Under the pieces are notes generated by a model that was given only the letters and a program-made list of their open reading frames with translations, was not told where the DNA came from and made no database searches. A stretch of 64,000 nucleotides of DNA from the sequence record OZ346219.1; one strand, 5' to 3'. The position numbers were made by a program, and so were the translations under genes. The stretch comes from a phage. Numbering within the stretch: position 1 is the stretch's first letter; every line of letters starts with the position of its first letter. Of the stretch, positions 2,852 to 62,900 are shown in pieces.

Positions 2852-4855
2852 ATGACTCTATTATCACCGGGTTTCGAAACGAAAGAAACTACTCTCTCCA
2901 CTACCATTGTGCAATCTGCGACTGGTCGCGCGGCACTGGTAGGTAAATTCCAATGGGGTCCAGCTTTCCAGATTATTCAAGTAACTAATGAAGTTGAATT
3001 AGTTAATAAATTTGGTCAGCCGGATAATAACACCGCAGACTATTTCATGAGCGGGGCTAACTTCCTCCAGTATGGCAATGACCTGCGTGTTGTTCGTGTA
3101 TTGAATAAAGAAAAAGCGAAAAACGCAACTGCCCTAGCTGGTAACATCGAGTTTGAAATCACAAACGAAGGTTCAAACTATGAAGTAGGCGATACCATCA
3201 AGATTAAACATAACCGTCAAGATATTGAAACGGCTGGTAAAGTAACTAAAGTTGATGGTGATGGTAAAGTTAAGGGCGTATTTATCCCAACTGGTAAAAT
3301 TATCGCTCACGCTAAAGCAATCGGTGTATATCCAGAACTTGATGGCGGTTGGACGGCAGAGTTCACTTCTTCGTCAGGTAACGGTAGTGCGGTGCTGTCA
3401 GTAACTAAAATTGTTACTGATTCCGGTCTTCTGTTAACGGATCTGGAAACTTCCCGCGCCAATATCACAAATCAGACTTTCTTGACTAAACTCCAGAAGT
3501 ATGATATGCCAGCGGTAAGCGCGATCTATGCTGGTGAGATTGGCAACTCGCTGGAAGTTGAAATTCTGGCACGTAGCGCGTTCAGTGGCGCGGTAGCACC
3601 TGAATTAACTATGTATCCGTTCGGCGGAACTCGTGCCGCAGCACGCAACCTGATTCCATATGCACCGCAGAATGATAATCAATATGCATTTATTGTTCGT
3701 CGCGATGGTGTTGTGGTAGAATCCTATGTACTGTCTACTCTGAAAGGGGATAAAGACGTATACGGCAATTCTATCTACATGGACGACTTCTTTGCTCGTG
3801 GTTCTAGCCAGTACATCTATGCAACCGCTCAAGGGTGGGTAGATGGTTTCAGTGGTATTATCTCTCTTGCTGGTGGTGTTTCTGCTAACGAAGCAACGAC
3901 TGGTGGAGTTGGTGCTGATCCGTTCATCGGTGCGATGATGCAAGGTTGGGATCTGTTTGCTGAACGAGAATCTATTCACGTAAACCTGTTGATTGCTGGT
4001 GCATGTGCTGGCGAAGGCGATGCGTTCTCTACCGTACAGAAACATGCTGTTTCCATCGGTGATGAGCGTCAGGATTGCTTAGTAATGGTTTCTCCGCCGC
4101 GTAGCACTGTTGTTAATATTCCGGTGACTACTGCAATTGATAACCTGATTGCATGGCGCGAAGGTTCAGGAAACTATAATGAAAACAACATGAACATTAA
4201 TACCACTTACGCGGTTATTGATGGTAACTACAAATATCAGTATGACAAATACAACGACGTAAACCGTTGGGTTCCGTTGGCTGCTGATATTGCTGGTTTG
4301 TGCGCTCGTACTGATGCTGTATCCCAGCCGTGGATGAGTCCGGCAGGTTATAACCGTGGTCAGATCATGAACGTGGTTAAACTGGCAATTGAGCCTCGTA
4401 AGGCGCACCGCGATCGTCTGTATCAGGCCGCAATTAACCCGGTAATCGGTGCTGGCGGTGAAGGGTTTATCCTAATGGGTGATAAAACCGCTACGACTGT
4501 TCCTAGCCCGTTTGACCGCATTAACGTTCGTCGTCTGTTTAACATGCTGAAAAAGAATATCGGCGATTCAAGCAAATACAAACTGTTTGAAAACAACGAT
4601 AACTTTACTCGCGCTTCCTTCCGTATGGAGGTTTCGCAATATCTCAGCACGATTCGCTCTCTGGGTGGCATTTATGACTTCCGAGTACAATGCGACACCA
4701 CGAATAACACGCCGGATGTAATTGATCGTAACGAATTTGTTGCTAGTATGTTCATCAAACCAGCAAAATCGATCAACTATATCATGCTCAATTTCACTGC
4801 TGTTGCAACTGGTTCTGATTTTGACGAAATTATCGGTCCAGCTAACCAGGCATAA
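2852..4855 (+). CDS. 18: tail sheath protein gp18
   Basis: 667 aa; N-terminus MTLLSPG..FQWGPAFQI.QVTNEV and C-terminal NDVNRWVPLAADIAGLCARTD match T4 gp18; RBS gagg upstream. Confidence 0.96.
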   Translation: MTLLSPGFETKETTLSTTIVQSATGRAALVGKFQWGPAFQIIQVTNEVELVNKFGQPDNNTADYFMSGANFLQYGNDLRVVRVLNKEKAKNATALAGNIEFEITNEGSNYEVGDTIKIKHNRQDIETAGKVTKVDGDGKVKGVFIPTGKIIAHAKAIGVYPELDGGWTAEFTSSSGNGSAVLSVTKIVTDSGLLLTDLETSRANITNQTFLTKLQKYDMPAVSAIYAGEIGNSLEVEILARSAFSGAVAPELTMYPFGGTRAAARNLIPYAPQNDNQYAFIVRRDGVVVESYVLSTLKGDKDVYGNSIYMDDFFARGSSQYIYATAQGWVDGFSGIISLAGGVSANEATTGGVGADPFIGAMMQGWDLFAERESIHVNLLIAGACAGEGDAFSTVQKHAVSIGDERQDCLVMVSPPRSTVVNIPVTTAIDNLIAWREGSGNYNENNMNINTTYAVIDGNYKYQYDKYNDVNRWVPLAADIAGLCARTDAVSQPWMSPAGYNRGQIMNVVKLAIEPRKAHRDRLYQAAINPVIGAGGEGFILMGDKTATTVPSPFDRINVRRLFNMLKKNIGDSSKYKLFENNDNFTRASFRMEVSQYLSTIRSLGGIYDFRVQCDTTNNTPDVIDRNEFVASMFIKPAKSINYIMLNFTAVATGSDFDEIIGPANQA

Positions 4856-16507: not shown

Positions 16508-17236
16508 TTACTTGAGTGTGTGGAATTGGCTATGTTTAGTCTCTCGCACCTTGACAGACCCATCGCGTTTGATATAATAGATCAGTGACTTGAGGGTGTC
16601 GTGTACATACGCGTGCGGGAAACGCTCTGGATACTTCTTCCAATCTGGAGTATTAACGATCCAGTCGAAAATCCACCACGGGCAGGAGTAGTAACCACGA
16701 CCGCCACCGATCAAGCAAATGGTCGGACGGAAGCCAGTAAGATCGCAAAATGAATCAGTGTCATGTGCTGGGGAACGATGATCTGCTTCGTCAGAGAAAA
16801 GGTTGGCTACCGGAGATTCCACTTTAACTTCCGGTACATCTACAACTTCAATTGTAACTGGTACTGTGTGTGGTTTGGCTTCTTCTACAACTTCAATTGT
16901 AATTGGTTCTTCTTTTTGTTCTGGTTCTTTCATTGCTTCAACCAGAGACGGATCAACTTCGTCGAATACCACTTTATCATCTGCGGTGTCTGCTGCCAGA
17001 ATAAGATCGTTAATACTGGTTCCTTCTGCCGGAGTTTCTTCTTCCATTTCGGAAGCCAGTTTAGTTAATTCGGTCTCTACGAACTCGATCATGTTCTCTA
17101 GCGAGAGCGTCTTTTTGACCTTAATATCAAATTGTTTCGCGTAGTCCGCTAATTCTGTTTTAGCGGTTTTCTGTGCTTCTTTGTCGTCGGACGCCGCAAT
17201 AGCGCGGAGTTCTTCGAAATATTCTTTATCAAACAT
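16508..17236 (-). CDS. hypothetical acidic protein with Cys/Trp-rich C-terminal domain (position of T4 inh)
   Basis: 242 aa; internal TIEVV repeats; position between hoc and uvsW. Confidence 0.55.
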   Translation of the reverse strand: MFDKEYFEELRAIAASDDKEAQKTAKTELADYAKQFDIKVKKTLSLENMIEFVETELTKLASEMEEETPAEGTSINDLILAADTADDKVVFDEVDPSLVEAMKEPEQKEEPITIEVVEEAKPHTVPVTIEVVDVPEVKVESPVANLFSDEADHRSPAHDTDSFCDLTGFRPTICLIGGGRGYYSCPWWIFDWIVNTPDWKKYPERFPHAYVHDTLKSLIYYIKRDGSVKVRETKHSQFHTLK

Positions 17237-36725: not shown

Positions 36726-37019
36726 TTATAATGCTTTATATGCGTATTTCATAAATTTGTCTGCCACTTCATTGGCATGTTCAGATTCTACGCCTGATTC
36801 TAGAACAATAGCTAGGTCGGTTTCGTCATTCCCGCCGTACCAATGATTTGATGTTCGATTTTTTTCAATTGGAAATTGGTCACTTTTATCTGTGCGACAA
36901 AATACATCTAAATGCTCGTCGATGTAAAAGATCCAATCTTCATAAAGAATAACGGTATTAGCCAGATTTTTATTGCCTTCAACGAAAGGTTCGGCTACAA
37001 ACAAATTAGTATGTTCCAT
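36726..37019 (-). CDS. small protein, HxHW paralog family member
   Basis: SNHWYGG...LAIVLESGV; start set at MEHTNLF with RBS gagga (track ORF starts 37076). Confidence 0.45.
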   Translation of the reverse strand: MEHTNLFVAEPFVEGNKNLANTVILYEDWIFYIDEHLDVFCRTDKSDQFPIEKNRTSNHWYGGNDETDLAIVLESGVESEHANEVADKFMKYAYKAL

Positions 37020-37035
37020 AGTATTTTCCTCAAAA

Positions 37036-37227
37036 TTATACAGCTTCGTAAACTTCCCAATGTCCAACACCAGCACGCTTAACGAAAAGGTTTTCTTTTA
37101 TGTTATTCATAAACGTCTGGATGGATTTAATGCGGTTTGAAGGTTTCCATTCTTCGTTGGCATTGCGTCGATACATCATAACATTACCAGTTCGCTTATA
37201 TTCAGCAACCATTTTAAGACCACACAT
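37036..37227 (-). CDS. hypothetical protein (63 aa)
   Basis: ORF only. Confidence 0.35.
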   Translation of the reverse strand: MCGLKMVAEYKRTGNVMMYRRNANEEWKPSNRIKSIQTFMNNIKENLFVKRAGVGHWEVYEAV

Positions 37228-37283
37228 AATATTATCCTCAATTTGTGGGAGAGTATTACCCTCCCGATTATTGTTATACTACA

Positions 37284-37586
37284 TTACGCAAAATGGCGTG
37301 TCAATGCTTCTTTTGCTGTTCCGCTAAGATTCTCGATCTCTCCTGGCATAACCTCAACCGCAAGAACTTCTACAACATCCTCTGATCCTAACCAGTGAGT
37401 ATGACCTTTGTAGAACTTGATATCCCATTTATCGCTATCGCTAGCCCACCACACATCACCGTCGATAAAGTTGATGTAAAGCACACTACGACACATTGAA
37501 TTAATTACTTTCAATACTGCGCCTTTCATCTCTTCCACGGTATGGTCTTCCATTTTGAAGACCTCGCCTACCTTAACTTTTGCCAT
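37284..37586 (-). CDS. small protein, HxHW paralog family member
   Basis: GHTHWLGSEDVVEVLAVEV. Confidence 0.55.
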   Translation of the reverse strand: MAKVKVGEVFKMEDHTVEEMKGAVLKVINSMCRSVLYINFIDGDVWWASDSDKWDIKFYKGHTHWLGSEDVVEVLAVEVMPGEIENLSGTAKEALTRHFA

Positions 37587-37603
37587 TTAGTCACCTCTCT
37601 TTA

Positions 37604-37786
37604 TTACATAACAATCACGCCAGCCGTTGAAAGTTGATGTTTCAACTGAGCATTTTCTGCTACCGTCAAATCAATGATTTCTTGTGACGCTGCAATCATA
37701 TAGCCATTGGTGATATTGTTTTGCATCAGTTCAATGGTTTCTTCGTTGTAGCGGATTTTAGCGATGATTTCGTTGAAGTTCATAAT
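37604..37786 (-). CDS. small hypothetical protein (60 aa)
   Basis: start set at MNFNEIIAK after leader RBS ggaga (track ORF starts 37849). Confidence 0.4.
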   Translation of the reverse strand: MMNFNEIIAKIRYNEETIELMQNNITNGYMIAASQEIIDLTVAENAQLKHQLSTAGVIVM

Positions 37787-37817
37787 TGATTCTCCTAGTT
37801 CGTTTCGGTATGTGTGT

Positions 37818-37846
37818 AGTATAGGGGATCGGTGATCCCCTGTCAA
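37818..37846 (-). promoter_or_regulatory. sigma70-like early promoter cassette with stem-loop (PeSL-like)
   Basis: TTGACA-N17-TATACT; stem-loop ggggatcggtgatcccc. Confidence 0.6.
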
Positions 37847-37854
37847 CAACTTTT

Positions 37855-38166
37855 TTAAAGTTTTTCCATGATAACGGTCATAATTACATCTTCTGCGCGA
37901 GCGGTCAGATTATCAGCGTCAGCATGTGGGCGGTTGGTTGTTACAGAGATAACACCGTTGCGCACTGGTTTGATGTTGATATCAAGATGATCCGCGAAAC
38001 GTTCGCCAGTTACAGAATGAATTTTGGTGTTAAATTCTTTTGCCAGTGCCTTGCGAACTTCACGAATCAGGGTAGCGTTTTTCAGTTGGTTCTCCGCGCT
38101 CATGGTCTTCTTGGTGTTCATGGTTCCGTCGAAGTCAATCATTGGCAGCGTTACGATGTATTTCAT
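37855..38166 (-). CDS. hypothetical protein (103 aa), AKEFN family
   Basis: REVRKALAKEFNTK; start set at MKYIVTLP after leader RBS. Confidence 0.5.
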   Translation of the reverse strand: MKYIVTLPMIDFDGTMNTKKTMSAENQLKNATLIREVRKALAKEFNTKIHSVTGERFADHLDINIKPVRNGVISVTTNRPHADADNLTARAEDVIMTVIMEKL

Positions 38167-38211
38167 TTTTGATTCTCCGTTTAAGAAAGTGTGTTTCGTT
38201 TTGATGTGTGT

Positions 38212-51466: not shown

Positions 51467-52699
51467 TTATACTGCCATTTGAGCGGTGATTGCTGGATGG
51501 CTTTGATAGTTGTGAATTTTAAAGTCTTTCGGAGTCTTTGTCAATACCTCATCTAAAGATTTAAATTCCGGCAACTCAATCGTTGGTTTATCAAACGGAA
51601 CACGGCTTAACTGTTCCATAACTTGATCAAAATGGTTTTTGTAAATGTGAGTATCTCCACCAGAGAAAATCAGTTCTCCTACCTCAAGATCACACATTTT
51701 CGCTATGATGTGAGTTAACAGCGCATAGCTGGCGACGTTAAAGGGCAAGCCTAAAAAGCTGTCTACGCTTCTCTGAAACCACATACAAGACAGTTTACCT
51801 TCATTGACGTAGAATTGCACGAAAGGATGACATACACCCAATACAGCATTATGTGTTCCTTGTACGTTCCATGAGTCAATAATGATCCGGCGATCCGTTG
51901 GATTGTTTTTAATTTGTTCAATCACGTTTTGTAACTGGTCTTCCCAAATCTTCGGGCGATAGACATATTCTTCATCGTCTTTAGTGCTCGATGTGTCTAC
52001 GTCCATACTAGCAAAGATCGTGGTATCTGGTGCTAAAATATCCCCACCCAGATAATCACTATCAAGCAGATAACCGAAATAACCATCATCTACCCATTCC
52101 TGGAATCCCCACAAGCAATATGCATCATTAACAAAATTAGATTGAGTCTTCCAGTGGTCTGCTACTAAGAATAGATTATACTCAGAATCAAACTCTTCAT
52201 AACGCATACCACGCCAGATAGCACATAAACGGTCTTCTGTTTCATTGGTTGGCGTAAAGTCTTCTACCCACGGGTGCTTAAATGTATGTGCATATTTGCT
52301 CTTAACGCGCTTAATTTTGATTTCACCGTGTGGATGAATCGGTTTGCGTCGCCATGCCATACCATACATATTGCCGACATTATAACCATTGAATCGCAAA
52401 GGATTCTTTTCTTTCATATCAAGACAGTTGCCGCGCCAAATGTCGAAGGCTTCTTCGTCAAACTTACCGCGTGTAATTTCCTGTAAGCGACGGCGGTCAA
52501 GTGATCCCTCCATAAACCATAGCAATTCGCCAATTACAGAGGCTGTAGCCATCTTTTTAGTGGTTAGTAAGGGGAAACCCTTGCTTAAATCAATTCGCAT
52601 CTCTGCGCCGAATTTAGAGAGCGTACCTACCCCCGTGCGGTCTTCACGAGGCCAGCCATTATCAAGAACATCACGCAATAGTTTCAAATATTCTTTCAT
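51467..52699 (-). CDS. td: thymidylate synthase with ~120-aa internal insertion
   Basis: 410 aa; DRTGVGT, RRIIIDSWN, catalytic CH, FQRSVDSFLGLPFNVASYALL, GGDTHIY match ThyA; extra segment between WRR and DQLQNVI. Confidence 0.85.
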   Translation of the reverse strand: MKEYLKLLRDVLDNGWPREDRTGVGTLSKFGAEMRIDLSKGFPLLTTKKMATASVIGELLWFMEGSLDRRRLQEITRGKFDEEAFDIWRGNCLDMKEKNPLRFNGYNVGNMYGMAWRRKPIHPHGEIKIKRVKSKYAHTFKHPWVEDFTPTNETEDRLCAIWRGMRYEEFDSEYNLFLVADHWKTQSNFVNDAYCLWGFQEWVDDGYFGYLLDSDYLGGDILAPDTTIFASMDVDTSSTKDDEEYVYRPKIWEDQLQNVIEQIKNNPTDRRIIIDSWNVQGTHNAVLGVCHPFVQFYVNEGKLSCMWFQRSVDSFLGLPFNVASYALLTHIIAKMCDLEVGELIFSGGDTHIYKNHFDQVMEQLSRVPFDKPTIELPEFKSLDEVLTKTPKDFKIHNYQSHPAITAQMAV

Positions 52700-53033: not shown

Positions 53034-53603
53034 TTACGCCTTCTTACGTTCTAAAATTTGTTCGCTGATCAGGTAATTATCAAGGAAGTGATTATGTTCT
53101 TCTTTGGTTACAAAGTCAAAATATAATTCCTGAATCATTTCCTTAGAGATACCAACATCATATTCAAATGGATCGTTGACCCCTGAACGTTGAACATACG
53201 TTAACACAATACGGTCCGCAAAGTCAACCGCTTTTTCAATCAGGGAAGGTCCGCCGATAACACTTACCAAACCTTGCGTTTTCTCCAGGACTTTTAACAG
53301 ATCCTTTAATTCAATTCCAGTATACACATTAGGCTGGTCGCCGTTTTTGGCTTTCGGTGTCGGCTTGCTGGCATCGGTACTAATAACCACATTAAGACGA
53401 CCTTCCAGTGCTTTAGGCAGACTTTCAAAGGTATTACGTCCCATTACAACAGCCGCAAGTTCAACATCTCCCATAGTGCGCATTTTAAAGTTTTCCATGT
53501 CCTTTTTGATTGGACGCCCCCACGGTAAACCGCCTTTAAAACCAAAAGCCCAATTTTCATCTGACATTTTAGTGTCACCAATCGCAAATACACATTGAAT
53601 CAT
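53034..53603 (-). CDS. frd: dihydrofolate reductase
   Basis: 189 aa; AFG..GGLPWGR, VIGGPSL as in T4 Frd/DHFR. Confidence 0.88.
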   Translation of the reverse strand: MIQCVFAIGDTKMSDENWAFGFKGGLPWGRPIKKDMENFKMRTMGDVELAAVVMGRNTFESLPKALEGRLNVVISTDASKPTPKAKNGDQPNVYTGIELKDLLKVLEKTQGLVSVIGGPSLIEKAVDFADRIVLTYVQRSGVNDPFEYDVGISKEMIQELYFDFVTKEEHNHFLDNYLISEQILERKKA

Positions 53604-53618
53604 AATATAAATCTCCCA

Positions 53619-53948
53619 TCAAATCAGTTTGAAATAGTTTTCGTTTACATTTTCTTCTGTGATTGCTGTCTTAAATTCTTGACCGTTATCCGGTGTGATG
53701 AAATAACGGTCAGAATAATCACGAAAACGTTTTAAGTGAGATACCCCAACATTAACACCATTTTCCCAGAAACGAAAGGTAATCATTTTTGGTTCATATC
53801 GATAATCGCTGGTTAACACAGTACCATCCCCGCGACGGGCTTCATAAACCGTAATACATTCACGATTAGCGGCTTTAAGGCATTCTTCAATAGTGCCGCA
53901 CGAGATAATACTTACTTTTTCATCTACGATTTGTTCTACAGTCCACAT
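53619..53948 (-). CDS. hypothetical protein (109 aa)
   Basis: start set at MWTVEQ after promoter cassette (track ORF starts 53981). Confidence 0.5.
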   Translation of the reverse strand: MWTVEQIVDEKVSIISCGTIEECLKAANRECITVYEARRGDGTVLTSDYRYEPKMITFRFWENGVNVGVSHLKRFRDYSDRYFITPDNGQEFKTAITEENVNENYFKLI

Positions 53949-53979
53949 AATATAATACTCTCTTTGTTTCGATATGTGC

Positions 53980-54007
53980 ATTATACACTATTGCGTTACG
54001 CTGTCAA
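53980..54007 (-). promoter_or_regulatory. sigma70-like early promoter cassette (PeSL-like)
   Basis: TTGACA-N16-TATAAT. Confidence 0.5.
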
Positions 54008-55180
54008 CTCTTTTTCAAAAGATTTTACAATATACATGATAGTGCTCAATTCAGACGGCGCTACTGTCTCTGTGTAGCCGTCCGGCATATCTTCTTTTGA
54101 GATATAGGAAGTTTTACCTTTCATAGCTTCCTTGATCTTGTTCTCTAATTCTAAGATCTTTTGACCATCTTGTAAAGTCAATTCATAAAAGATCTCGTGG
54201 TCGAACTGAGATTTACTGCTTTGTTGTTTTAGTCTTTTGGTGGTATTAGAATTTGTGACCCCAAATTTTACCCCGATTAATAAATGCTCTTTTATTAATT
54301 TTTGAATATACAGAGTTCCTTTTTTTAATGGATTGTACCCATATTTTGCACATTTAGGACATCGAGTTCCGTTCTGAAAATCAGTTATTCTAGGACTAAA
54401 TCCATGTCCATGATCACATAACAACTTTAATCTTGTATTCACACCTTTCCATTCATCTACAAAACCATTACATGTTATATTTTCTTCAACGAAAATTGGT
54501 TTAAGTCTTTCAAGATATTCTTCTTTTGAACGAGCATAGTTTTTTGCACACTTAAAACAACGTCTTCCCGCTTGAAAACTAGATATAATTGGATTAAATT
54601 CATGACCATACTCACACAATAAATTCATTTTTGTTTTGTTGCCGTTCCATTCACCAATAAATCCGTTAAAAATTATGTTCTCTTTTATGAAAATTGGTTT
54701 AAATCTTTCAAGATATTCTTCTTTTGATAAAGCATAATTATGTGCGCATTTAGGACATCGAGTCCCTCTCCGAAAATTTGTTATTGTCGGTGCAAATTCG
54801 TGTCCTTCACAACACACTAAATCTAACTTTGTGAATACACCTTTCCATTCATCTACAAAACCATTACATGTTATATTTTCTTCAACGAAAATTGGTTTAA
54901 GTCTTTCAAGATATTCTTCTTTTGATAAGGAATAATTATGTGCGCATCTAGGGCAACGTTTACCTTTTTGAAAATCTGATATTCTTGGTGTAAATTCATG
55001 TCCTTCACAACACACCAAACCCAATTTTGTTACGTTGCCTTTCCACTCACCAACAAATCCATTAAATACGATATTTTCTTTTTCGAAAATTGGTTTAAGT
55101 CTTTCGTAATATTCCGTAGGACTAATCGAGTTGTATTTTTTCTTAACCCATTCAATCTCATGAGCTTGACGTACTAACAT
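53996..55180 (-). CDS. four-repeat zinc-finger protein with T5orf172/GIY-YIG-like C-terminal domain
   Basis: 394 aa; 4 x ~66-aa repeats (SKEEYLERLKPIF.EENI.CNGFVDEWKG..TKL.L.C..GHEF.P.I..F..G.RCPKCA.NY); C-terminal GTLYIQKL...IGVKFGVTN...TKRLKQ. Confidence 0.6.
   Translation of the reverse strand: MLVRQAHEIEWVKKKYNSISPTEYYERLKPIFEKENIVFNGFVGEWKGNVTKLGLVCCEGHEFTPRISDFQKGKRCPRCAHNYSLSKEEYLERLKPIFVEENITCNGFVDEWKGVFTKLDLVCCEGHEFAPTITNFRRGTRCPKCAHNYALSKEEYLERFKPIFIKENIIFNGFIGEWNGNKTKMNLLCEYGHEFNPIISSFQAGRRCFKCAKNYARSKEEYLERLKPIFVEENITCNGFVDEWKGVNTRLKLLCDHGHGFSPRITDFQNGTRCPKCAKYGYNPLKKGTLYIQKLIKEHLLIGVKFGVTNSNTTKRLKQQSSKSQFDHEIFYELTLQDGQKILELENKIKEAMKGKTSYISKEDMPDGYTETVAPSELSTIMYIVKSFEKELTA
54325..55126 (-). 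repeat. four tandem ~200-bp coding repeats
   Basis: recurring gaaaattggtttaagtctttcaagatattcttcttttga near 54490, 54700, 54890, 55085. Confidence 0.7.
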
Positions 55181-55299: not shown

Positions 55300-56274
55300 T
55301 TACATCCCTAACAGAGCGTCAAGATCATCCAGATCAGAAGCGGAGGAAGTACCGCCACCCAGGTCCAGAGATGCCATCAGATCATCAGCGGAAGAATCTA
55401 ACGCCGTGCTAGCTGCGTTAATACCAACTACAGTGCTAGCTGCGGTAGTACCAGCGTCGAATGCATTCATCTGTGCGTCAAAATCATCAAGCTGGCTGTT
55501 AATCGCTGCCGCAGCACTGGAAGCCGCCGCACCAGCTACCATAGAAACGCCCATAGTTTTCTTAAATTTGGTTTCCAGTTCATCGAACGGTTTAAACTGG
55601 CTAGGCGCTACAATCTCACTCAGATCAACCATGTTTTCCATCAGATATTTCTGATATGCTTCGTCTTCAATTTTCGGAAGCTGTGATTGCTGCATGAAAC
55701 GAGAATCGTCATAGTTCTGGTGTTTATCAACCTTCTTAGCTTTCAGGAGGAAGTTAGCACCGGAGAACACACAAGTTACATCTACCGGAACTTCGCCCAT
55801 GTCGGTATTCACGTTCACCATTGCAACGATCTTATCATAAATTTTCTGACCGAAGCGGAATTTGAATACCTTACCTTCATTTTCTGGTGCTTGAGGATCT
55901 TTCAGTACCAGAATATTTGCGTAGTAAGAGGCTTTACGCTTAATCAGTTGCCATTCTGTTTTATCGGTATTGTACAGGTCTTTTTCGTTAATATATTTGC
56001 ACACAGGGCAAGAATCAAAATCACCGTGGGTGCTTGAGCAGTTTTCCCAATACCATTTACCATTAACTTTGAAGGAATGGTTTACCAGTTTCACAATCGG
56101 CAGACCGTCTTCTGTCTTAGACGGCAGGAAGCGAATCAGGGCTTCACCGTTACCTGCTGCATCAGTCTTAATCTTCCACTCTTTCGGATCTTCTTTGGAG
56201 AAACCGTTGCCACCTTTCAGTGCGGCCAGTTGAGCTTGCAGTTTGGAAGAATCTTGACGACGAAACATGTTCAT
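55300..56274 (-). CDS. 32: single-stranded DNA-binding protein gp32
   Basis: 324 aa; [49 protein letters not shown], acidic C-terminus as in T4 gp32. Confidence 0.93.
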
Positions 56275-56334: not shown

Positions 56335-56931
56335 TTAATTGCTTGTCAATACTTTATCAATTATATCTAACAGTTTTGGCTTTCTATTTTCAAATTCTAA
56401 CATCTCTTCGGGAGAAATGTCAACTACTTCTGTTTTGTTGAAAAAGTTTGGGTCTATAGCATCAGCAACAAAGTTTCTCGCAAGTGCTGCCGCTTTCTCA
56501 TGGACATATATTCCCAAATATATCAACTTCTTTCTTTCGACCTGAATATTGGCAACATATTTACCATCTCGTTTATAAAGACTAACACCGATATATTCAG
56601 ACGATCGACCTTTCTGTTTACCCATATTTCTTGAGTTTTGTTGCTCGTTCGCATCTCTCAAGTTTTCAATCCGATTATCTGTTATAATTCGGTTAACATG
56701 GTCAACGTATTTTGGCATGTATCCATGATGCATAAAGAAAATTATTCTATGCTCTTTATGATGTTTACCATCGATACACACCAATCTGTATCCATGACTA
56801 GGATTAACTCCACCCGCTCTAGATCCGACTTTATGCTTTCGGTTTGTCGATATCTTGCGAATCAGCTTACCGTTATCATATTTAAAGAGTTCATGACAAC
56901 GAGCATACAATTCAGGATCATATGTTTTCAC
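56335..56931 (-). CDS. HNH homing-endonuclease-like protein with AP2 DNA-binding domain
   Basis: 198 aa; HHKEHRIIFFMHHGYMPKYVDHVNR...DNRIENL (HNH) and EYIGVSLYKRDGKYVANIQ (AP2-like). Confidence 0.65.
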   Translation of the reverse strand: MKTYDPELYARCHELFKYDNGKLIRKISTNRKHKVGSRAGGVNPSHGYRLVCIDGKHHKEHRIIFFMHHGYMPKYVDHVNRIITDNRIENLRDANEQQNSRNMGKQKGRSSEYIGVSLYKRDGKYVANIQVERKKLIYLGIYVHEKAAALARNFVADAIDPNFFNKTEVVDISPEEMLEFENRKPKLLDIIDKVLTSN

Positions 56932-57595
56932 CTTTTAACCTCGATATTTCTTTACACTCTTTAACTACTTTAACAAATAATGCTCTTGCTTTTGCGGCGT
57001 CAATAACAAGTAGTTTCTTGTACGCCTTCATTTTAACACTATAAGTTTGCCAAATCAAGTCTTTGGCTACCTTGTCGTGTTCGTCGATTATATTTAGAAA
57101 GCTATCTAACAACATAAACGACTCAAACGATATAATCCGATTTTGCAGTAGTTTAAAGATACCGCTAGTTTCGGTTGCGGGATTGTATGTAATTAGCTCT
57201 TTAAGAGTAACCCCGCGTTTCTCGGAGAAGTATACCAGACTTTTAATGTCATCGTCAAATCGTGTTGCTGCATCGGTTATCTTTCCTATGTATTCCATAT
57301 AAAAGCCGTATGCGTCAACATCAGTGATTTCACCTACCCATGCATCGGTATTAGCTACCAGATTGCTTAGGAATAGGAAGTATAATTCTCTTAGATTGTA
57401 CTTTTCCGCTAATTTCGCGAAATAATACTTATCTCTGCGTTTATTGAATGCGGCATCAGATAACCGCATCCTCCAATTGTATTTTACGCAATCATAACGC
57501 CCGTTCATATGAGCTTTCATCATGCAATATAACATATACACAGATTTAGCATTAATTCGCATATCTGGATCTGGAGGAAGACGGTTTCTGATCAT
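56918..57595 (-). CDS. 59: helicase loader gp59
   Basis: 225 aa; KSVY.LY.M.K.HMNG.YD..KYNW.MR.SDAA..KRRDKY.F.KL, FISNLVAN.DAW as in T4 gp59. Confidence 0.9.
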   Translation of the reverse strand: MIRNRLPPDPDMRINAKSVYMLYCMMKAHMNGRYDCVKYNWRMRLSDAAFNKRRDKYYFAKLAEKYNLRELYFLFLSNLVANTDAWVGEITDVDAYGFYMEYIGKITDAATRFDDDIKSLVYFSEKRGVTLKELITYNPATETSGIFKLLQNRIISFESFMLLDSFLNIIDEHDKVAKDLIWQTYSVKMKAYKKLLVIDAAKARALFVKVVKECKEISRLKGENI

Positions 57596-57604
57596 ACATA
57601 CCCC

Positions 57605-57874
57605 TTAAATATCGAGAGTGTTGGTCGGTTCGTCGATCACTCCCTTCCTGAGCGTTCTATTTACTATACATTCTTGTGTGATCTTGTCAATAATGGACAC
57701 CGGAATATATTTCTGATAGTGACAATATTCTATAGAGTTTTCCTCTACAAACTGAGTTGTCGCTTCAAGATAAGTCAATCCCTCTTCAACAACCAGTTTT
57801 TCGATTGCAAGACCGTTTGCTGTTTTATTCGCGGCTTTTACCGCATGTTCATTAAGCATTGAACACCCGATCAT
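57605..57874 (-). CDS. 33: late transcription co-activator gp33
   Basis: 89 aa; IEKLV.E.G..YLEATT.F.EENSI, C-terminal NTLD as in T4 gp33. Confidence 0.75.
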   Translation of the reverse strand: MIGCSMLNEHAVKAANKTANGLAIEKLVVEEGLTYLEATTQFVEENSIEYCHYQKYIPVSIIDKITQECIVNRTLRKGVIDEPTNTLDI

Positions 57875-58127
57875 AGAGTTCTACCGCTTCGTCGCGTTCT
57901 GCTTCGAAGGTTTCGCGCTGTTGCTGGTGATACAGTTTAAACAGAATGCCCCACATTTTACCATCTACGCCTAATTCTTCTTTAGCACGCTGTTTGATCT
58001 CTTTGATCTTATCGCCATATGCTTCTTGAATGGTTTTCTGATCGCTGGCTTCTTTAATCAGTTGCGCCAGGGTATTTCCGTGTACATTTTCATCGAATAC
58101 TACTTTTTCTTTTTTCTGTTCAGTCAT
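57852..58127 (-). CDS. dsbA: putative DsbA dsDNA-binding protein
   Basis: 91 aa; position between rnh and 33 as in T4. Confidence 0.55.
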   Translation of the reverse strand: MTEQKKEKVVFDENVHGNTLAQLIKEASDQKTIQEAYGDKIKEIKQRAKEELGVDGKMWGILFKLYHQQQRETFEAERDEAVELYDRVFNA

Positions 58128-58132
58128 AATAT

Positions 58133-58729
58133 TTAACCCTCTTTCGTCATTAATTGAAAACCACGTTCAGCTTTTGAAATTTCGCTAGGACTTAAATCGT
58201 CACCAACATATTCTAGCATCATTTCTCGGATAATGTCAAGTGCTTTTTCATCACCTGATTTTAACTCGAACTCAAGTTCATAGTGAGCCTCTCCCATTCT
58301 TTCGCCGACTTTGCAATAATAGAAAGTGTCTTTGCACATTTCCACTATAGCACCCTCAAGGTCAAGTGTCAATGACTTGCGGTATGTCATTACTTGCAAT
58401 AAAGGAACGATAAGGTCGGAGTTTACGCCTAGACTATCAACATAATGATAGAAATCATCCATTGTTGAAAAAGTAATTTCTTCTCGGTTGAAGAGTCCAG
58501 ATTCACTATCACCTATTTTGACCATGATCAATGATCTATTAACGTCAAGTCGAGCATAAATTCCTTTTCGACGCAGTGCATGATCTTCGGTATCATAATA
58601 AAATTCGTGTTTTAGAGTGTTAGCACGATCTACTAGATTGTACCCGTCATACATTGCTACCCACAAATCACAGATTGTTTCGACGCCAATTTGTGAGTGT
58701 GCATAGTATTTTAATTCAAGTTCTTTCAT
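58133..58729 (-). CDS. CYTH-domain (triphosphate tunnel metalloenzyme) protein
   Basis: 198 aa; N-terminal ELELK (ExExK), YYDTEDHALRRKGIYARLD, C-terminal HYELEFELK. Confidence 0.55.
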   Translation of the reverse strand: MKELELKYYAHSQIGVETICDLWVAMYDGYNLVDRANTLKHEFYYDTEDHALRRKGIYARLDVNRSLIMVKIGDSESGLFNREEITFSTMDDFYHYVDSLGVNSDLIVPLLQVMTYRKSLTLDLEGAIVEMCKDTFYYCKVGERMGEAHYELEFELKSGDEKALDIIREMMLEYVGDDLSPSEISKAERGFQLMTKEG

Positions 58730-58739
58730 ATATCAACCC

Positions 58740-59687
58740 TTAGAACTCACCAATTTTCTGCAACATTTTAACTAACGCATTTGTTACAAAATAGTTATAA
58801 ATTTTACCGCGTGGTGCTGGTTTAGATTTCTCCCATGCTAACAAAATTTCATATTCGATGTTATCAGGAATAAATTCAAAATCAATAAGTTCGCGGTTTT
58901 CGTCAAAGCGTCGTGCTTCTTCCTCTGTCATCAAAGACTTTGGATCTTCGGCATCGAAAATTTGCTCTAACCATTTGGTTGCAATTGGTTTAGCTCGTTC
59001 TCCTTCCAGTCGTGAGATAATGAAATCACTACGGCACTTGATCGAAGCTACACCGTCTTTTGCGTCACCCTTAACACATTTTACCATAAGGTCTTTGTAA
59101 GGGCTACCATATTTGCATTTCTTCCATGCTTTCTGTACTGGTGCCCACTGTTTCACATTTTTGTATTTGTGCAACTGTGTGTAGTCACCATCGCCGGAGT
59201 TGATTAGCACCTGGCGACCTTCTACAGAAAACTTTTTAGTTAACACAGCGATTATATCATCCGCTTCAACTTTGTCAACCTTAATAACGTGATAAGGCAT
59301 GTTCTCTTTAAACTCTTCGGTGATCTTATTGATCGCAGAAAAGATCATCTCCCAATCACGCGGATCTGCGTCTCGTTTTTCCTTACGGTTGCGTTTATAG
59401 TAAGGTGCGATATCACGTCGCCAGTAACCTTTGCTTGAATCAAAGGCAAGTACCGTAATTGGGTATTGCTCTTTGAATTTTGTCATATTATAACGCATGG
59501 TGTCAAGGATAAGATGACGGATCATGCCTTCATTAATAGGATCTTCCGGTTTAAAGGTATGTGAGATAGTAGCAATCATAAGCTGCGACATATCAATCAA
59601 ATGCACACCTTCCGGCAGTTTATCTTCTGGATCATCAAAGAAATCATTAAGTGTAGCGGTAGTTTTTGTAAACGGGTTATACGTCAT
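58740..59687 (-). CDS. rnh: RNase H / 5'-3' flap exonuclease
   Basis: 315 aa; size and position as T4 rnh. Confidence 0.8.
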   Translation of the reverse strand: MTYNPFTKTTATLNDFFDDPEDKLPEGVHLIDMSQLMIATISHTFKPEDPINEGMIRHLILDTMRYNMTKFKEQYPITVLAFDSSKGYWRRDIAPYYKRNRKEKRDADPRDWEMIFSAINKITEEFKENMPYHVIKVDKVEADDIIAVLTKKFSVEGRQVLINSGDGDYTQLHKYKNVKQWAPVQKAWKKCKYGSPYKDLMVKCVKGDAKDGVASIKCRSDFIISRLEGERAKPIATKWLEQIFDAEDPKSLMTEEEARRFDENRELIDFEFIPDNIEYEILLAWEKSKPAPRGKIYNYFVTNALVKMLQKIGEF

Positions 59688-59689
59688 AA

Positions 59690-59875
59690 TTAAGTTCTCT
59701 CCACTCTCACAACAACATATTCGCCAAACGAGTTAGATACTTCACGATCATACCCGTACTTCTCCATAACTCGCAGAATTGCATTGTTTAATTCAGCACG
59801 GAAATAATTATAATCCTTATCAGGGATTCTGTCAACTACCCATTTTGCACCTTCTGACAAATCAACTTTAACCAT
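59690..59875 (-). CDS. hypothetical protein (61 aa)
   Basis: ORF only. Confidence 0.4.
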   Translation of the reverse strand: MVKVDLSEGAKWVVDRIPDKDYNYFRAELNNAILRVMEKYGYDREVSNSFGEYVVVRVERT

Positions 59876-59913: not shown

Positions 59914-59921
59914 TATAAATA
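59914..59921 (+). promoter_or_regulatory. T4-type late promoter (TATAAATA) upstream of gene 34
   Basis: TATAAATA 29 nt upstream of ATG. Confidence 0.55.
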
Positions 59922-59949: not shown

Positions 59950-62900
59950 ATGGCAGATTTTTCTCAACATTTCAAGGCCACATTTGGCTTTGACGCTGGT
60001 AATGAAAAGGTCGTCAATGTAGCATTGGCTGATAAGAATGTCAACACCGATGCGGTCAACGTTGAATTTTTCAATTACCATAATGGTATTACTCAGTATG
60101 ACACAACTCGCGGTTATGATCAATACGGAACTACAATCTATCAAAACCGTCCGTATTATGCAAAAGAAGATATCACAAAGCCAGCAGGAGATTTTGACCC
60201 GACTAAATGGCAAGCACTGCGCACGGACCCACGTTGGGATTATATTGCAGCAACTTCCGGTGATACTCCTTTACAGTCTGGCGATTATATCGCAGCAGAT
60301 GGTCAATTTGCAAACTTGACTTTCTCTATGCCAACTAAACCAGCAGAGGGAGACACTATAACAGTAAAAGATATCGGTGGCAAGTGTGGTGTTAACGAAT
60401 TATCGTTCTTGAGTACAGGACATGAGTTTTACCATAATGGTAATGTGTATAACAGAAAATGGTATTGCACTACCCCGTATGCAATGAACTATTTCATCTT
60501 TGTTCGGAATCGTTGGCATGTTTATCAGACAGGAACAGAGCCACGCGGTGTGTACGCACAGCCAGCGATTGATGCTATTCAAATGCAGAATGGTGATCAG
60601 GTATTTCGTCGTAGTTCGTTGGGTAATATTACCTTAGTGCTTCCTAAGTTTGCCAACAATGGCGACATGATCCAGACTACAGACCTTGACGGATTAACCG
60701 CAACCAACCACGTTACGGTTAAAGTTCATGAGCACGCAGAAGAACAATCAATTGGCACGTCCGGTCTAAAAGAGATTATCGGTAAGCGTAGCGGTCATGG
60801 TGTATTCATCTTTGACAAGACGGAAAACTTATGGCGTTTGTGGGATGGTGATCAGTCTGTTCGTCTTAAACCGATCATCAATGACACTCGCTTGCAACCT
60901 AATAGCTATGTTGCTGTATTTGGTGGTCGTGATGTTACTCTGACGCTGCCGACCAATGTCGAGCCGGGTGATCGTATTCAAGTTTCTATGCAGTATATGC
61001 ACGGAAACCAGACTTGCCGAATCATTACCTCAGAAGAGGATACAAAAATCCTTATGCAGAAAAACATGGTTCAGTTTCCTAAGCGTAGCGAGTACCCATT
61101 CAATGGGACCGATACATGGACTGGAGTGTCTGAATTGTCTTTCAACGCTGCAAATGATTATGTACCTTATCTGGAGTTCTCTTATTCAGAAGGTGATGAT
61201 GGTAAGAAATACTGGTTGGTGGCACATGCTCACCCGATTGTAGAACGAGTAGATCCGACTCGTAAAGATCGTGTTGGTGTAATTGCACTGGCTACCCAGA
61301 CTGAAACGAATAAAAACCATGAAGAGAATCCTAGCGACGAAGTTGCTGTAACACCAAAAATGCTGGCTAATAAAACAGCCAACGAAACTCGACGCGGTAT
61401 TGCTCGCATTGCGACTCAAGCGGAAACGCATCAAGATACTGGTTCCAACTTCCTGGATGATGTTATCGTTACACCCAAAAAGTTAAATGACTGTGTTGCT
61501 ACCGAAGCCCGTCGTGGTGTGATGGAAATTGCAACCCAGCACGAAACCAATGAAGGTTTAGACGATACCCGCGCTATTACTCCTAAGAAATTAGAAGAAC
61601 GTCGCGCTTCCGAAGATCTAGCTGGTATTGCTGAAATTGTTCAGGCTGGCGGTAGTGCTGCCGCTCGACGTGGCGAAGCTGGTACAGGGATCTATAACAT
61701 CAACGACCATGCTAAAATTGTTACGCCACAAAACATCAACGAAGTCAAGGCGACCGAAACTTCCCGTGGTGTTGGCTATCTGGCAACTGACGCGGAAGTG
61801 CAAGGGGCTACAGAATCAACCCCGCAAGATGCTTTACTAATCACGACTCGCACGCTAACGAAACGTACTGCTACCGAATCGCGCACTGGTATCGCTGAAA
61901 TTGCAACTCAGGAAGAAACAAACTTAGGTCAAAGTGATAACCATATCATCACGCCTAAAAAGCTGCATACTCGCCGCGCAACTGAAACTTTACATGGTTT
62001 AGCAGAAATTGCAACTCAACCGGAGTTTGACGCAGGTCGTGACGATTCTCGCATTTCTACCCCATTGAAGATTAAAACCTTCTTTGAGAATGCACAGCGT
62101 TTGAAAGTAGATCCGACTCAGGGGCTTAACCTTACTGGTGATTTGTGGCAAGGTATCATGATCAGCGGTCTGGATGCAACCGAAGACACAAAAGGTGTCG
62201 CTAAAGTTGCGACTACTCAGCTTACTGACGCTGGTCAAGATGATACTACAATCATCACGCCTAAAAAGCTGCAAGGCAAAAAGGCCACCGAAGGTAAAGA
62301 AGGTATTATCCGAGTTGGTACTCAAGCCGAAACCGTGGCTGGTATTATGGACAATGTAGCAATTTCTCCGAAGAACTTCAAATATGTTGTTCAGACAGAG
62401 GATACATGGAAAGCAACCGAAGCGCGTCGTGGATTCTTGAAAGTTGCTACTCAGGAAAACTGTTTTGTTGGTGATAATCTGCAAGGTTCTACTCAAGAAC
62501 TAGGAAACTACCAGCATGACGGAATTGCTGTTACCCCTAAAGGATTAAACTACGCACTTGCTAATTTCTTACCTAAGATGGCAACCGCTCAGAATAGTTT
62601 GAAATTGGGTAACGTAGAGGCCTCTAAATGGGCGCGTAGAGACATTGACCAGACCATTGAGAGCAATTACACGTTTAATAAAAACGTTAACGTGAAGGGC
62701 GATTTAGAGTGCTTAAAATCTGGTTCCTTTGAAACTCTGTCTGTGACTAAGAACTCGACCGATGTTCCGAGTAATGGTCATCTGGTGTTGGGTGAGCGTG
62801 GAGTTGACGGTCACACCGGAATTACTCTGCATGGCACAACCGCATCGGAAGGCATGAAAAACTCTTGGTCTATTATCGTTGGTGGTACTGGAACAGCGCA

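Follow-up and report, generated by a model that had tools for sequence, protein, structure and literature searches.

A CYTH-domain protein with a putatively remodelled tunnel and a recombining central cassette between rnh and dsbA of Krischvirus phages

Introduction

In phage T4 the genes rnh and dsbA are direct neighbours with 8 nt between them, whereas in the RB49-like, T4-type coliphages of the genus Krischvirus a further gene lies at this junction. What does this gene encode, what might its product do, and how long has it been there? We addressed these questions in a stretch of 64,000 nt from the Krischvirus record OZ346219.1 (the window, to which all positions refer), in which the gene is a 198-aa open reading frame (ORF) running from ATG to TAA on the minus strand (Table 1). 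An earlier interpretation made from the letters alone (the sequence-only reading) had pointed out this ORF, without naming its strand, and placed it where T4 has rnh next to dsbA; both points were borne out by the Pfam and PHROG identities of the neighbours and by comparison with T4. We found that the protein belongs to the CYTH/triphosphate tunnel metalloenzyme (TTM) superfamily, that it keeps the putative metal-binding and catalytic residues of the family with substitutions along one part of the predicted tunnel, and that most of its gene consists of a cassette exchanged among otherwise near-identical phages.

The gene encodes a CYTH-domain protein

The Pfam CYTH profile (PF01928) matched residues 41-190 with 27.2 bits against a gathering cut-off of 23.2 (E 3.9e-6) and was matched independently by 14 of 20 family members, and the protein matched PHROG 14893, which is annotated 'unknown function', with E 2.8e-132. 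These matches are far beyond chance. The sole significant sequence match in the PDB was E. coli YgiF (E 0.023 with the single sequence and 0.0034 with the family profile), in an alignment that spans the ExExK motif through the C-terminal helix. An NCBIfam scan of the protein gave zero matches and hence no equivalog name. In the AlphaFold2 model, built on a 20-sequence alignment (predicted local distance difference test, pLDDT, 92.2; predicted TM-score, pTM, 0.85), the strands and helices follow the order of a tunnel enzyme, with a predicted eight-stranded antiparallel β-barrel, the tunnel, and a C-terminal plug helix. Foldseek against the PDB placed YgiF at the top (E 6.5e-13; query TM-score, TMq, 0.77), and all the remaining matches were CYTH/TTM proteins. 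A very divergent allele, P0040, was modelled with the same topology (pLDDT 91.9), although the two models shared an alignment and are not independent. Thus, profile searches, the predicted fold and the conserved acidic and basic residues described below support the assignment of this ORF to the CYTH/TTM superfamily, as the sequence-only reading had proposed. The two points on which that reading had staked itself, a CYTH match in profile searches and a modelled tunnel with its acidic residues, were both found.

The assignment is already known, having been public since the RB49 genome papers (2003-2006). The RB49 GenBank entry (AY343333) annotates the orthologue, RB49ORF244c, as 'similar to ... 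ygiF', and the table of Nolan et al. 2006 lists 'RB49ORF244c CYTH domain, 0.0026' (PMC1524935); a few later records use inorganic triphosphatase or adenylate cyclase as the name. Besides this 2006 Pfam table entry, our literature searches on phage CYTH proteins and the RB49 ORF found only a general comment on CYTH proteins of jumbo phages; Arbiol et al. 2010 do not mention the locus, and the HIDEN-SEQ and phage transposon-mutagenesis preprints do not cover Krischvirus. Since its CYTH nature was public, the domain call alone changes little. Our addition is modest: with the apparently remodelled pocket and the allele cassette, this gene is worth a small experimental effort. What CYTH proteins do physiologically is unclear in all organisms (PMC8233210, PMC3440374), and a long-kept phage copy offers a simple system for studying it.

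Table 1 Features at and around the CYTH gene of the window
Feature	Position	Strand	Remarks
CYTH/TTM gene, 198 aa + TAA stop	58133..58729	minus	ATG start; orthologue of RB49ORF244c / phi1p245
Shine-Dalgarno-like AAGGG	58737..58741	minus	7 nt 5' of the CYTH ATG, overlaps the rnh stop codon; read from the sequence
ExExK of strand 1, codons 3-7 (ELELK)	58709..58723	minus	putative metal-site-2 ligands E3, E5; K7; aligned to YgiF E4/E6/K8
Hypervariable central cassette, codons 10-149, 420 bp	58283..58702	minus	exchanged by recombination among Krischvirus genomes
Lys40, strand 2, clade-specific basic residue	58610..58612	minus	invariant in the phage clade
Codons 58-62 (Y-A-R-L-D), variant of strand-3 (small)-x-R-x-R	58544..58558	minus	register inferred from MAFFT; motif rules from PMC8233210
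Strand-8 acidic motif, codons 151-157 (ELEFELK)	58259..58279	minus	E153 = YgiF E160 (metal 1), E155 = YgiF E162 (metal 2)
C-terminal 'plug' helix, codons 185-194 (SKAERGFQLM)	58148..58177	minus	carries conserved K186, R189; helix 186-195 in the model
rnh (T4 RNase H / 5'-3' exonuclease), upstream neighbour	58740..59687	minus	Pfam RNaseH_C 2.6e-37, 5_3_exonuc_N 6.1e-18
61-aa ORF, beyond rnh	59690-59875	minus	
dsbA (dsDNA-binding late-transcription protein), downstream neighbour	57852..58127	minus	Pfam Phage_DsbA 5.4e-22
Gene 33	57605-57874	minus	Pfam and PHROG scans
Gene 59	56918-57595	minus	Pfam and PHROG scans
HNH/AP2 homing endonuclease ORF	56335-56931	minus	Pfam and PHROG scans
Gene 32	55300-56274	minus	Pfam and PHROG scans
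Perfect sigma70 consensus TTGACA-17-TATAAT, 12/12	59807..59835	minus	upstream of rnh; within coding sequence
Second perfect sigma70 match (TTGACA-N16/17-TATAAT), 12/12	59251-59278	minus	inside rnh
Sigma70-like match TTGACA-17-TATAGT with TG, 11/12	58344..58372	minus	inside the CYTH gene
Sigma70-like match TTGACA-18-TAGAAT with TG, 11/12	58210..58239	minus	conserved CYTH 3' end, upstream of dsbA

Putative catalytic residues are kept and part of the predicted tunnel lining differs

Residues were compared in a MAFFT alignment of 155 sequences comprising the phage clade, 146 relatives taken from a profile search run exhaustively over 1.84 billion representatives, and YgiF, with about 145 relatives counted at each position. 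The N-terminus of YgiF was entered as we take it to read; residues 40-201 agree with the pairwise HMMER alignment and the ExExK region with the profile alignment. Two motifs that the sequence-only reading had named are present, the N-terminal ExExK as E3-L-E5-L-K7, which is invariant in the phage family and kept in 99-100% of 145 relatives, and the C-terminal E-x-E-x-E-x-K as Y150-E-L-E-F-E-L-K157. Its third motif, an Arg-rich triphosphate-binding region, stands only in part: the stretch Y44YDTEDHALRRKGIYARLD62 is there, but R53, R54 and K55 are unconserved residues of a short helix or loop; the tunnel residue that is conserved in this region is R60, with Asp62 in place of the canonical second Arg.

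With a single exception, all positions conserved in 94-100% of the relatives are kept in the phage clade (E3, E5, K7, Y44, D46, R60, K71, R82, E84, R117, E130, D134, E151, E153, E155, K186 and R189), and the S/K/R/G positions of the plug helix are conserved in 89-100% of relatives. The kept set covers six YgiF equivalents, E4, E6 and E162 (metal 2), E160 (metal 1), R56 (catalytic Arg) and K69. The roles of the YgiF residues were shown by substrate complexes and mutagenesis (PMC4641920), and their conservation makes a two-metal hydrolytic mechanism the natural expectation for the phage protein.

Against this conserved background, four positions set the phage clade apart. Position 62 is Asp (Asn in P0045, the most distant member) and Arg in 142 of 145 relatives, corresponding to YgiF R58; position 40 is Lys, with K or R in 0 of ~145 relatives and Leu in 82; position 58 is Tyr, where the relatives mostly have Ala, Ser or Gly and only 2 aromatics among ~145; and position 69 is Met, where 90% of relatives have Thr. 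All four are predicted to fall on the lumen side of the neighbouring strands 2-4, suggesting that the tunnel of the clade may be a remodelled substrate pocket, in which the change from Arg to Asp together with the nearby change from Leu to Lys is possibly a charge swap. R60 would be the catalytic Arg, equivalent to YgiF R56, and Y58 takes the aromatic position of the W/YxRxR motif of thiamine triphosphatase (ThTPase), in which Trp53 stacks against the substrate's thiazole (PMC8233210). The Y58/D62/K40 set, almost absent from the ~145 relatives, is a cheap handle on substrate choice in TTM enzymes.

Proposed activity and substrate

We consider it quite probable, from the conserved residues and the modelled fold, that the protein is a metal-dependent hydrolase removing the terminal phosphate of a triphosphate-bearing substrate. 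The data show the gene, its family and fold, the conservation of its residues, its synteny and its mosaic structure; that it is catalytic, that it uses metal, when it is expressed and to which class its substrate belongs are points that we infer. It would be a stand-alone TTM whose nearest known relative is the tunnel domain of YgiF, most likely acting as a Mg2+/Mn2+-dependent phosphohydrolase through the two-metal TTM mechanism. The triphosphate would be gripped in the barrel by K7, R60, K71, R82, R117, K186 and R189, and probably also by the clade-specific K40. Metal 1 would link the substrate to E153, while metal 2, with E3, E5 and E155 as ligands, would activate a water molecule for attack on the terminal phosphate, yielding Pi and a diphosphate product. 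One end of the tunnel appears to be remodelled by Tyr58, Asp62 and Lys40, so the preferred substrate is probably an organic triphosphate, either nucleotide-like or a 5'-triphosphate end, and we rank such an organic or nucleotide triphosphate as more likely than plain inorganic triphosphate (PPPi). The influence on nucleotide or signalling-molecule pools that the sequence-only reading put forward would be a candidate role.

Several observations weigh against this reading. YgiF, the nearest characterised enzyme, is only 23-24% identical to the phage protein, and it hydrolyses PPPi but not ATP, GTP or ITP (PMC3440374); homology alone thus favours PPPi over an organic substrate. The strand-3 register varies with the alignment: with pairwise HMMER it is two residues off, and the YgiF catalytic Arg then faces Y58; if this register were right the catalytic Arg would be missing. 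We did not adopt such a loss, because the 155-sequence MAFFT alignment puts R60 in a column where 144 of 145 relatives have Arg, but the ambiguity stays. The tunnel geometry and the closeness of K40 to D62 were deduced from strand parity alone. The promoters described below were scored as sigma70 consensus matches and are to be read as matches only. Literature searches for biochemical or genetic work on the phage CYTH protein or its close homologues found none. Lastly, in vB_EcoM_G2494 (MK327935.1; locus 301-896) the gene carries a 1-nt deletion at codon 59 with six clustered transversions and is split into ORFs of 66 and 130 aa. This copy is either a real pseudogene, in which case the gene is dispensable, or a low-quality region of the assembly; the frameshift may thus mean that the gene is dispensable in the laboratory.

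The alternative that follows most directly from homology is a specific inorganic triphosphatase (PPPase; PPPi to PPi and Pi) like YgiF and NeuTTM, which would clear PPPi formed during infection, for instance by HD-type dNTP (deoxynucleoside triphosphate) triphosphohydrolases, which release PPPi; we hold this to be possible but on balance unlikely. YgiF, the best match in both sequence and structure, is PPPi-specific, and PPPase is the proposed ancestral activity of CYTH proteins (PMC3440374); furthermore, the full set of metal and basic residues is conserved, and a few GenBank records use this label. However, the phosphate-binding Arg corresponding to YgiF R58 is replaced by Asp in all clade members (Asn in P0045), a bulky Tyr occupies the place of a small residue typical of PPPases, and the CHAD domain of YgiF is absent from the phage protein, which has 198 aa and a single Pfam domain. 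In E. coli, ample PPPase activity comes from inorganic pyrophosphatase and is not lowered by a ygiF knockout, and the presence of PPPi in cells has not been demonstrated (PMC3440374). The benefit of an additional PPPase to the phage is therefore hard to see.

A second alternative, which we judge improbable, takes its cue from the TTM-type capping enzymes and the neighbouring gene: the protein might be a polynucleotide 5'-triphosphatase acting on 5'-ppp RNA, either on the pentaribonucleotide primers removed by the adjacent RNase H or on the 5' ends of host or phage mRNA, whose decay would be altered. By sequence and profile the protein did not fall within the Cet1-type mRNA triphosphatase family.

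The sequence-only reading had also allowed for a class IV adenylate cyclase (AC-IV), and the name adenylate cyclase stands in several GenBank records (PHB13, AV108, KMB43). Vogt et al. 2021 give three sequence rules for AC-IVs, namely HF four residues before ExExK, a small neutral residue in place of the first strand-3 Arg, and Ala in place of the second Glu of ExE (PMC8233210), the HF of HFxxxxExExK serving adenine stacking (PMC8233210). The phage protein follows 0 of the 3: its MKELELK start leaves two residues before ExExK and no room for HF, the first strand-3 Arg is retained as the invariant R60, and E155, likewise invariant, stands at the place where AC-IVs strictly carry Ala. The AC-IV structures also match worse than the phosphatase structures, and YgiF was itself long mis-annotated in the same way and has no cyclase activity (PMC3440374). 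It is therefore highly improbable that the protein is an adenylate or nucleotidyl cyclase of the CyaB type and produces a cyclic nucleotide in infected cells, in spite of membership in the CYTH superfamily and of the weak cyclase side activity described for some plant TTMs. We rejected this identity and regard the name in PHB13, AV108 and KMB43 as over-annotation. The label is spreading in records of Krischvirus, which are phage-therapy candidates, and is very probably wrong.

We also weighed a catalytically dead protein, which would act as a triphosphate or nucleotide 'sponge' or as a structural or regulatory partner of the replication and late-transcription proteins. The pairwise HMMER register, with Tyr for the catalytic Arg, would fit it, as would the weakening of the basic patch by Asp62 and a variable surface that could be a protein-interaction face. 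Yet alleles that are only 36-68% identical all keep the four metal-ligand Glu and six or seven basic tunnel residues, which is hard to explain without catalysis, and in the large alignment the catalytic Arg is still there as R60; a dead protein thus seems very improbable.

Comparison with characterised tunnel enzymes

YgiF, an inorganic triphosphatase (PDB 5a60/5a61), has 433 aa and is built of a tunnel domain and a C-terminal, polyphosphate-binding CHAD domain (PMC4641920), whereas the phage protein shows a single Pfam domain and no CHAD match. Relative to YgiF, it has Asp for the second Arg of RxR, Tyr for the Gly two residues before the catalytic Arg, the extra Lys40, and a hairpin shorter by two residues. 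Closer in architecture are NeuTTM of Nitrosomonas europaea, CthTTM of Clostridium thermocellum and SaTTM of Sulfolobus, each likewise a single tunnel domain of ~150-200 aa with the same motif set; these are metal-dependent triphosphatases, to which the phage protein is likened by its motifs. Mammalian ThTPase (PDB 3bhd, 5a64) is 14-16% identical, and in place of its W/YxRxR the phage protein has Y58-x-R60-x-D62, with the aromatic residue and the first Arg but not the second; nothing in the phage indicates thiamine metabolism. The class IV adenylate cyclases (CyaB of Aeromonas hydrophila, YpAC-IV; PDB 2fjt, 3n10), from which the phage label derives, have the superfamily and the barrel fold in common with it. 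Other virus-encoded proteins of the TTM fold, whose proposed targets are NTP pools or RNA ends, are Aeh1ORF004c, the proteins of Aeromonas phages 65.2 and D3, jumbo-phage CYTH proteins and giant-virus capping triphosphatases; they resemble the Krischvirus protein only in structure and only remotely (Foldseek E 1e-8 or weaker, TMq about 0.3-0.57) and are encoded at different genomic positions.

A central cassette is exchanged among Krischvirus genomes

Sliding-window comparison with RB49, Phi1 and Skers gave 93-100% identity in the flanks, while in the central cassette (Table 1) identity fell to 77-88% with Phi1 and 47-55% with Skers; in 100-nt windows against Skers, the values are 47-55% inside the cassette and 97-100% outside. 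Base-level alignment places the sharp borders just past the ExExK codons and just ahead of the YELEFELK codons. Nei-Gojobori estimates gave, for the window and the Skers cassette, a proportion of synonymous differences (pS) of 0.76, which is saturated, and a nonsynonymous proportion (pN) of 0.38, against synonymous rates (dS) outside it of 0.035 in the last 50 codons, 0.14 in rnh and 0.04 in dsbA. The cassette ranges are 0.74-0.82 for pS and 0.35-0.39 for pN, with a flank dS of 0.02-0.2. Relative to the metagenomic contig P0042, the cassette of the window has a dS of about 3.2 and a nonsynonymous rate (dN) of 0.55 (ratio 0.17); relative to Phi1, these values are 0.39 and 0.12 (ratio 0.32).

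The Krischvirus backbone carries at least five allele classes, whose amino acid identity is 36-68% within the cassette and 88-100% over the last 49 residues, and within strands the invariant (tunnel) positions alternate with variable ones. RB49 and phi1 proteins have a mean identity of 95.8% (PMC2839356), whereas the CYTH protein is only about 83% identical between their allele groups. We rejected in-situ positive selection as the cause of the cassette, since synonymous sites are saturated (pS about 0.75) and dN/dS is below 0.35; the data are better explained by homologous recombination that brought in ancient alleles, while purifying selection acted on the active site. The C-terminal third belongs to a shared recombination flank, perhaps with a promoter for dsbA, and its near-invariance is therefore in large part a DNA-level effect and not a special constraint on the protein.

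The cassette is not the only mosaic patch: about 10 other divergent patches separate the window from Skers (96.5% identity over 61.2 kb), and we discarded the idea that it is unique. Patches that diverge from or are absent in Skers lie at 600-1500, 3200-3400, 16800-17000, 36800-38200, 51600-52000, 53600-54000 and 60400-60800. A small one at ~58830-58880, in the 3' end of rnh, occurs in one version in the window and the P0042 contig and in another in RB49, Phi1 and Skers (about 75-80% over 100 nt).

A recombination hot spot with deep alleles in near-identical phages is a pattern often seen in host-interaction genes, and a host-range or counter-defence function may lie behind it. The protein might be a counter-defence or host-takeover enzyme destroying a triphosphate nucleotide made by the host, its variable exterior bearing the mark of an arms race with a sensor or inhibitor of the host. 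Candidate substrates would be deoxyinosine triphosphate (dITP) of the Kongming system, chain-terminating 3'-deoxy-3',4'-didehydronucleoside triphosphates (ddhNTPs), linear 5'-ppp oligonucleotides or an alarmone-like compound. At least five deep cassette alleles in a ~96% identical backbone with an invariant tunnel, and a seemingly remodelled, aromatic-containing pocket that would fit a nucleoside moiety, are in keeping with this proposal; moreover, dITP is a triphosphate nucleotide immune signal triggered by the deoxynucleoside monophosphate (dNMP) kinase of T4-type phages, and the breakdown of unwanted NTPs is the task that Iyer et al. proposed for phage CYTH triphosphatases. On the other hand, the saturated cassette dS points to allele import by recombination and not to demonstrable positive selection, the ~10 further patches in the same 64 kb make patchiness common in the genus, and the gene is frameshifted in one isolate. 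No PADLOC-DB defence family matched the protein (0 families at E ≤ 1), and literature searches yielded no link to any defence system. We therefore give a low chance to counter-defence, and a similarly low one to the broader proposal that the Krischvirus clade is a substrate-switched tunnel hydrolase, with a YxRxD + K40 pocket, directed against a host triphosphate nucleotide or another infection-specific organic triphosphate. If true, this would be the first counter-defence enzyme of the CYTH family.

The Krischvirus phages SAP and TB34 are 99.96% identical, yet one has modified and the other canonical cytosines (PMC13390438); both carry the Phi1-type CYTH allele (84.4% to the window), and the CYTH gene therefore does not account for this difference.

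The gene is an old resident of the junction

The 2.3 kb around the gene share 98.8% identity with Krischvirus RB49 (OZ035808), and the region is covered at 90-99% identity by 59 Krischvirus records. Over 50,697 phage genomes, tblastn found the phage CYTH clade solely in these 59 records, and tblastn with the distant relatives P0044 and P0045 added no cultured phages to them. A collection of 5.8 billion proteins held only 43 matching clusters, and the exhaustive search of the 1.84 billion representatives returned 6 at E ≤ 1e-10, followed by ordinary bacterial CYTH proteins of ~200 aa and CYTH-CHAD proteins of ~500 aa. In three uncultured relatives, P0043 (45% identity), P0044 (35%) and P0045 (30%), the gene is followed by dsbA and gene 33, and rnh lies upstream wherever upstream sequence exists.

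The GC content of the gene (0.37-0.38) resembles that of its flanks, and this, together with synteny down to 30% identity, ruled out a recent foreign origin. Synteny in the distant relatives and presence in all 59 Krischvirus records therefore indicate an old, fixed resident of the junction in one T4-type branch, which is absent from T4. The view of the gene as an acquired accessory, taken in the sequence-only reading, is accurate relative to T4, but the gene is present in 59 of 59 records of the genus, and the three uncultured lineages keep its position.

By profile score, the relative outside phages that comes nearest is P0046 (201 aa), carried by the metagenomic contigs L015 and L016. It adjoins a PRK-family kinase gene on a contig that looks archaeal (Sec61-beta, RIO1), and the kinase neighbour echoes the kinase-TTM fusion of plant TTM1/2.

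Expression signals

The gene begins 10 nt from rnh, and its stop codon lies 5 nt from the dsbA start. This tight packing, together with its own Shine-Dalgarno-like sequence, suggests that the protein is presumably made early or in the middle period with the replication genes, and we regard such co-expression as likely. Between 57500 and 60100, the minus strand holds 18 sigma70-like matches, an enrichment over the 9.3 ± 3.0 expected. The perfect match upstream of rnh could be a candidate early promoter for an rnh-CYTH-dsbA-33 transcript. A T4-type late promoter (TATAAATA) was not found on the minus strand near the CYTH gene; the one at 59914 is on the plus strand, ahead of gene 34. The enriched sites recall the strong early promoters and Promoter(early) Stem-Loop (PeSL) cassettes of RB49 and phi1 (PMC2839356).

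Other features of the window

The HNH and AP2 homing endonuclease ORF (Table 1) separates gene 32 from gene 59, whose 3' end it overlaps. It is present in Skers and absent from RB49 and Phi1, which gave no alignment; at the same junction, T4 has the unrelated GIY-YIG endonuclease SegG. We also noticed a 394-aa protein (53996-55180, minus strand) with four tandem CapR-homology, or treble-clef zinc-finger, repeats of ~70 aa and a C-terminal MUG113 (GIY-YIG-like) region. Its repeat region (54400-55000) defies alignment with the copy in Skers, and the related RB49ORF239c is longer.

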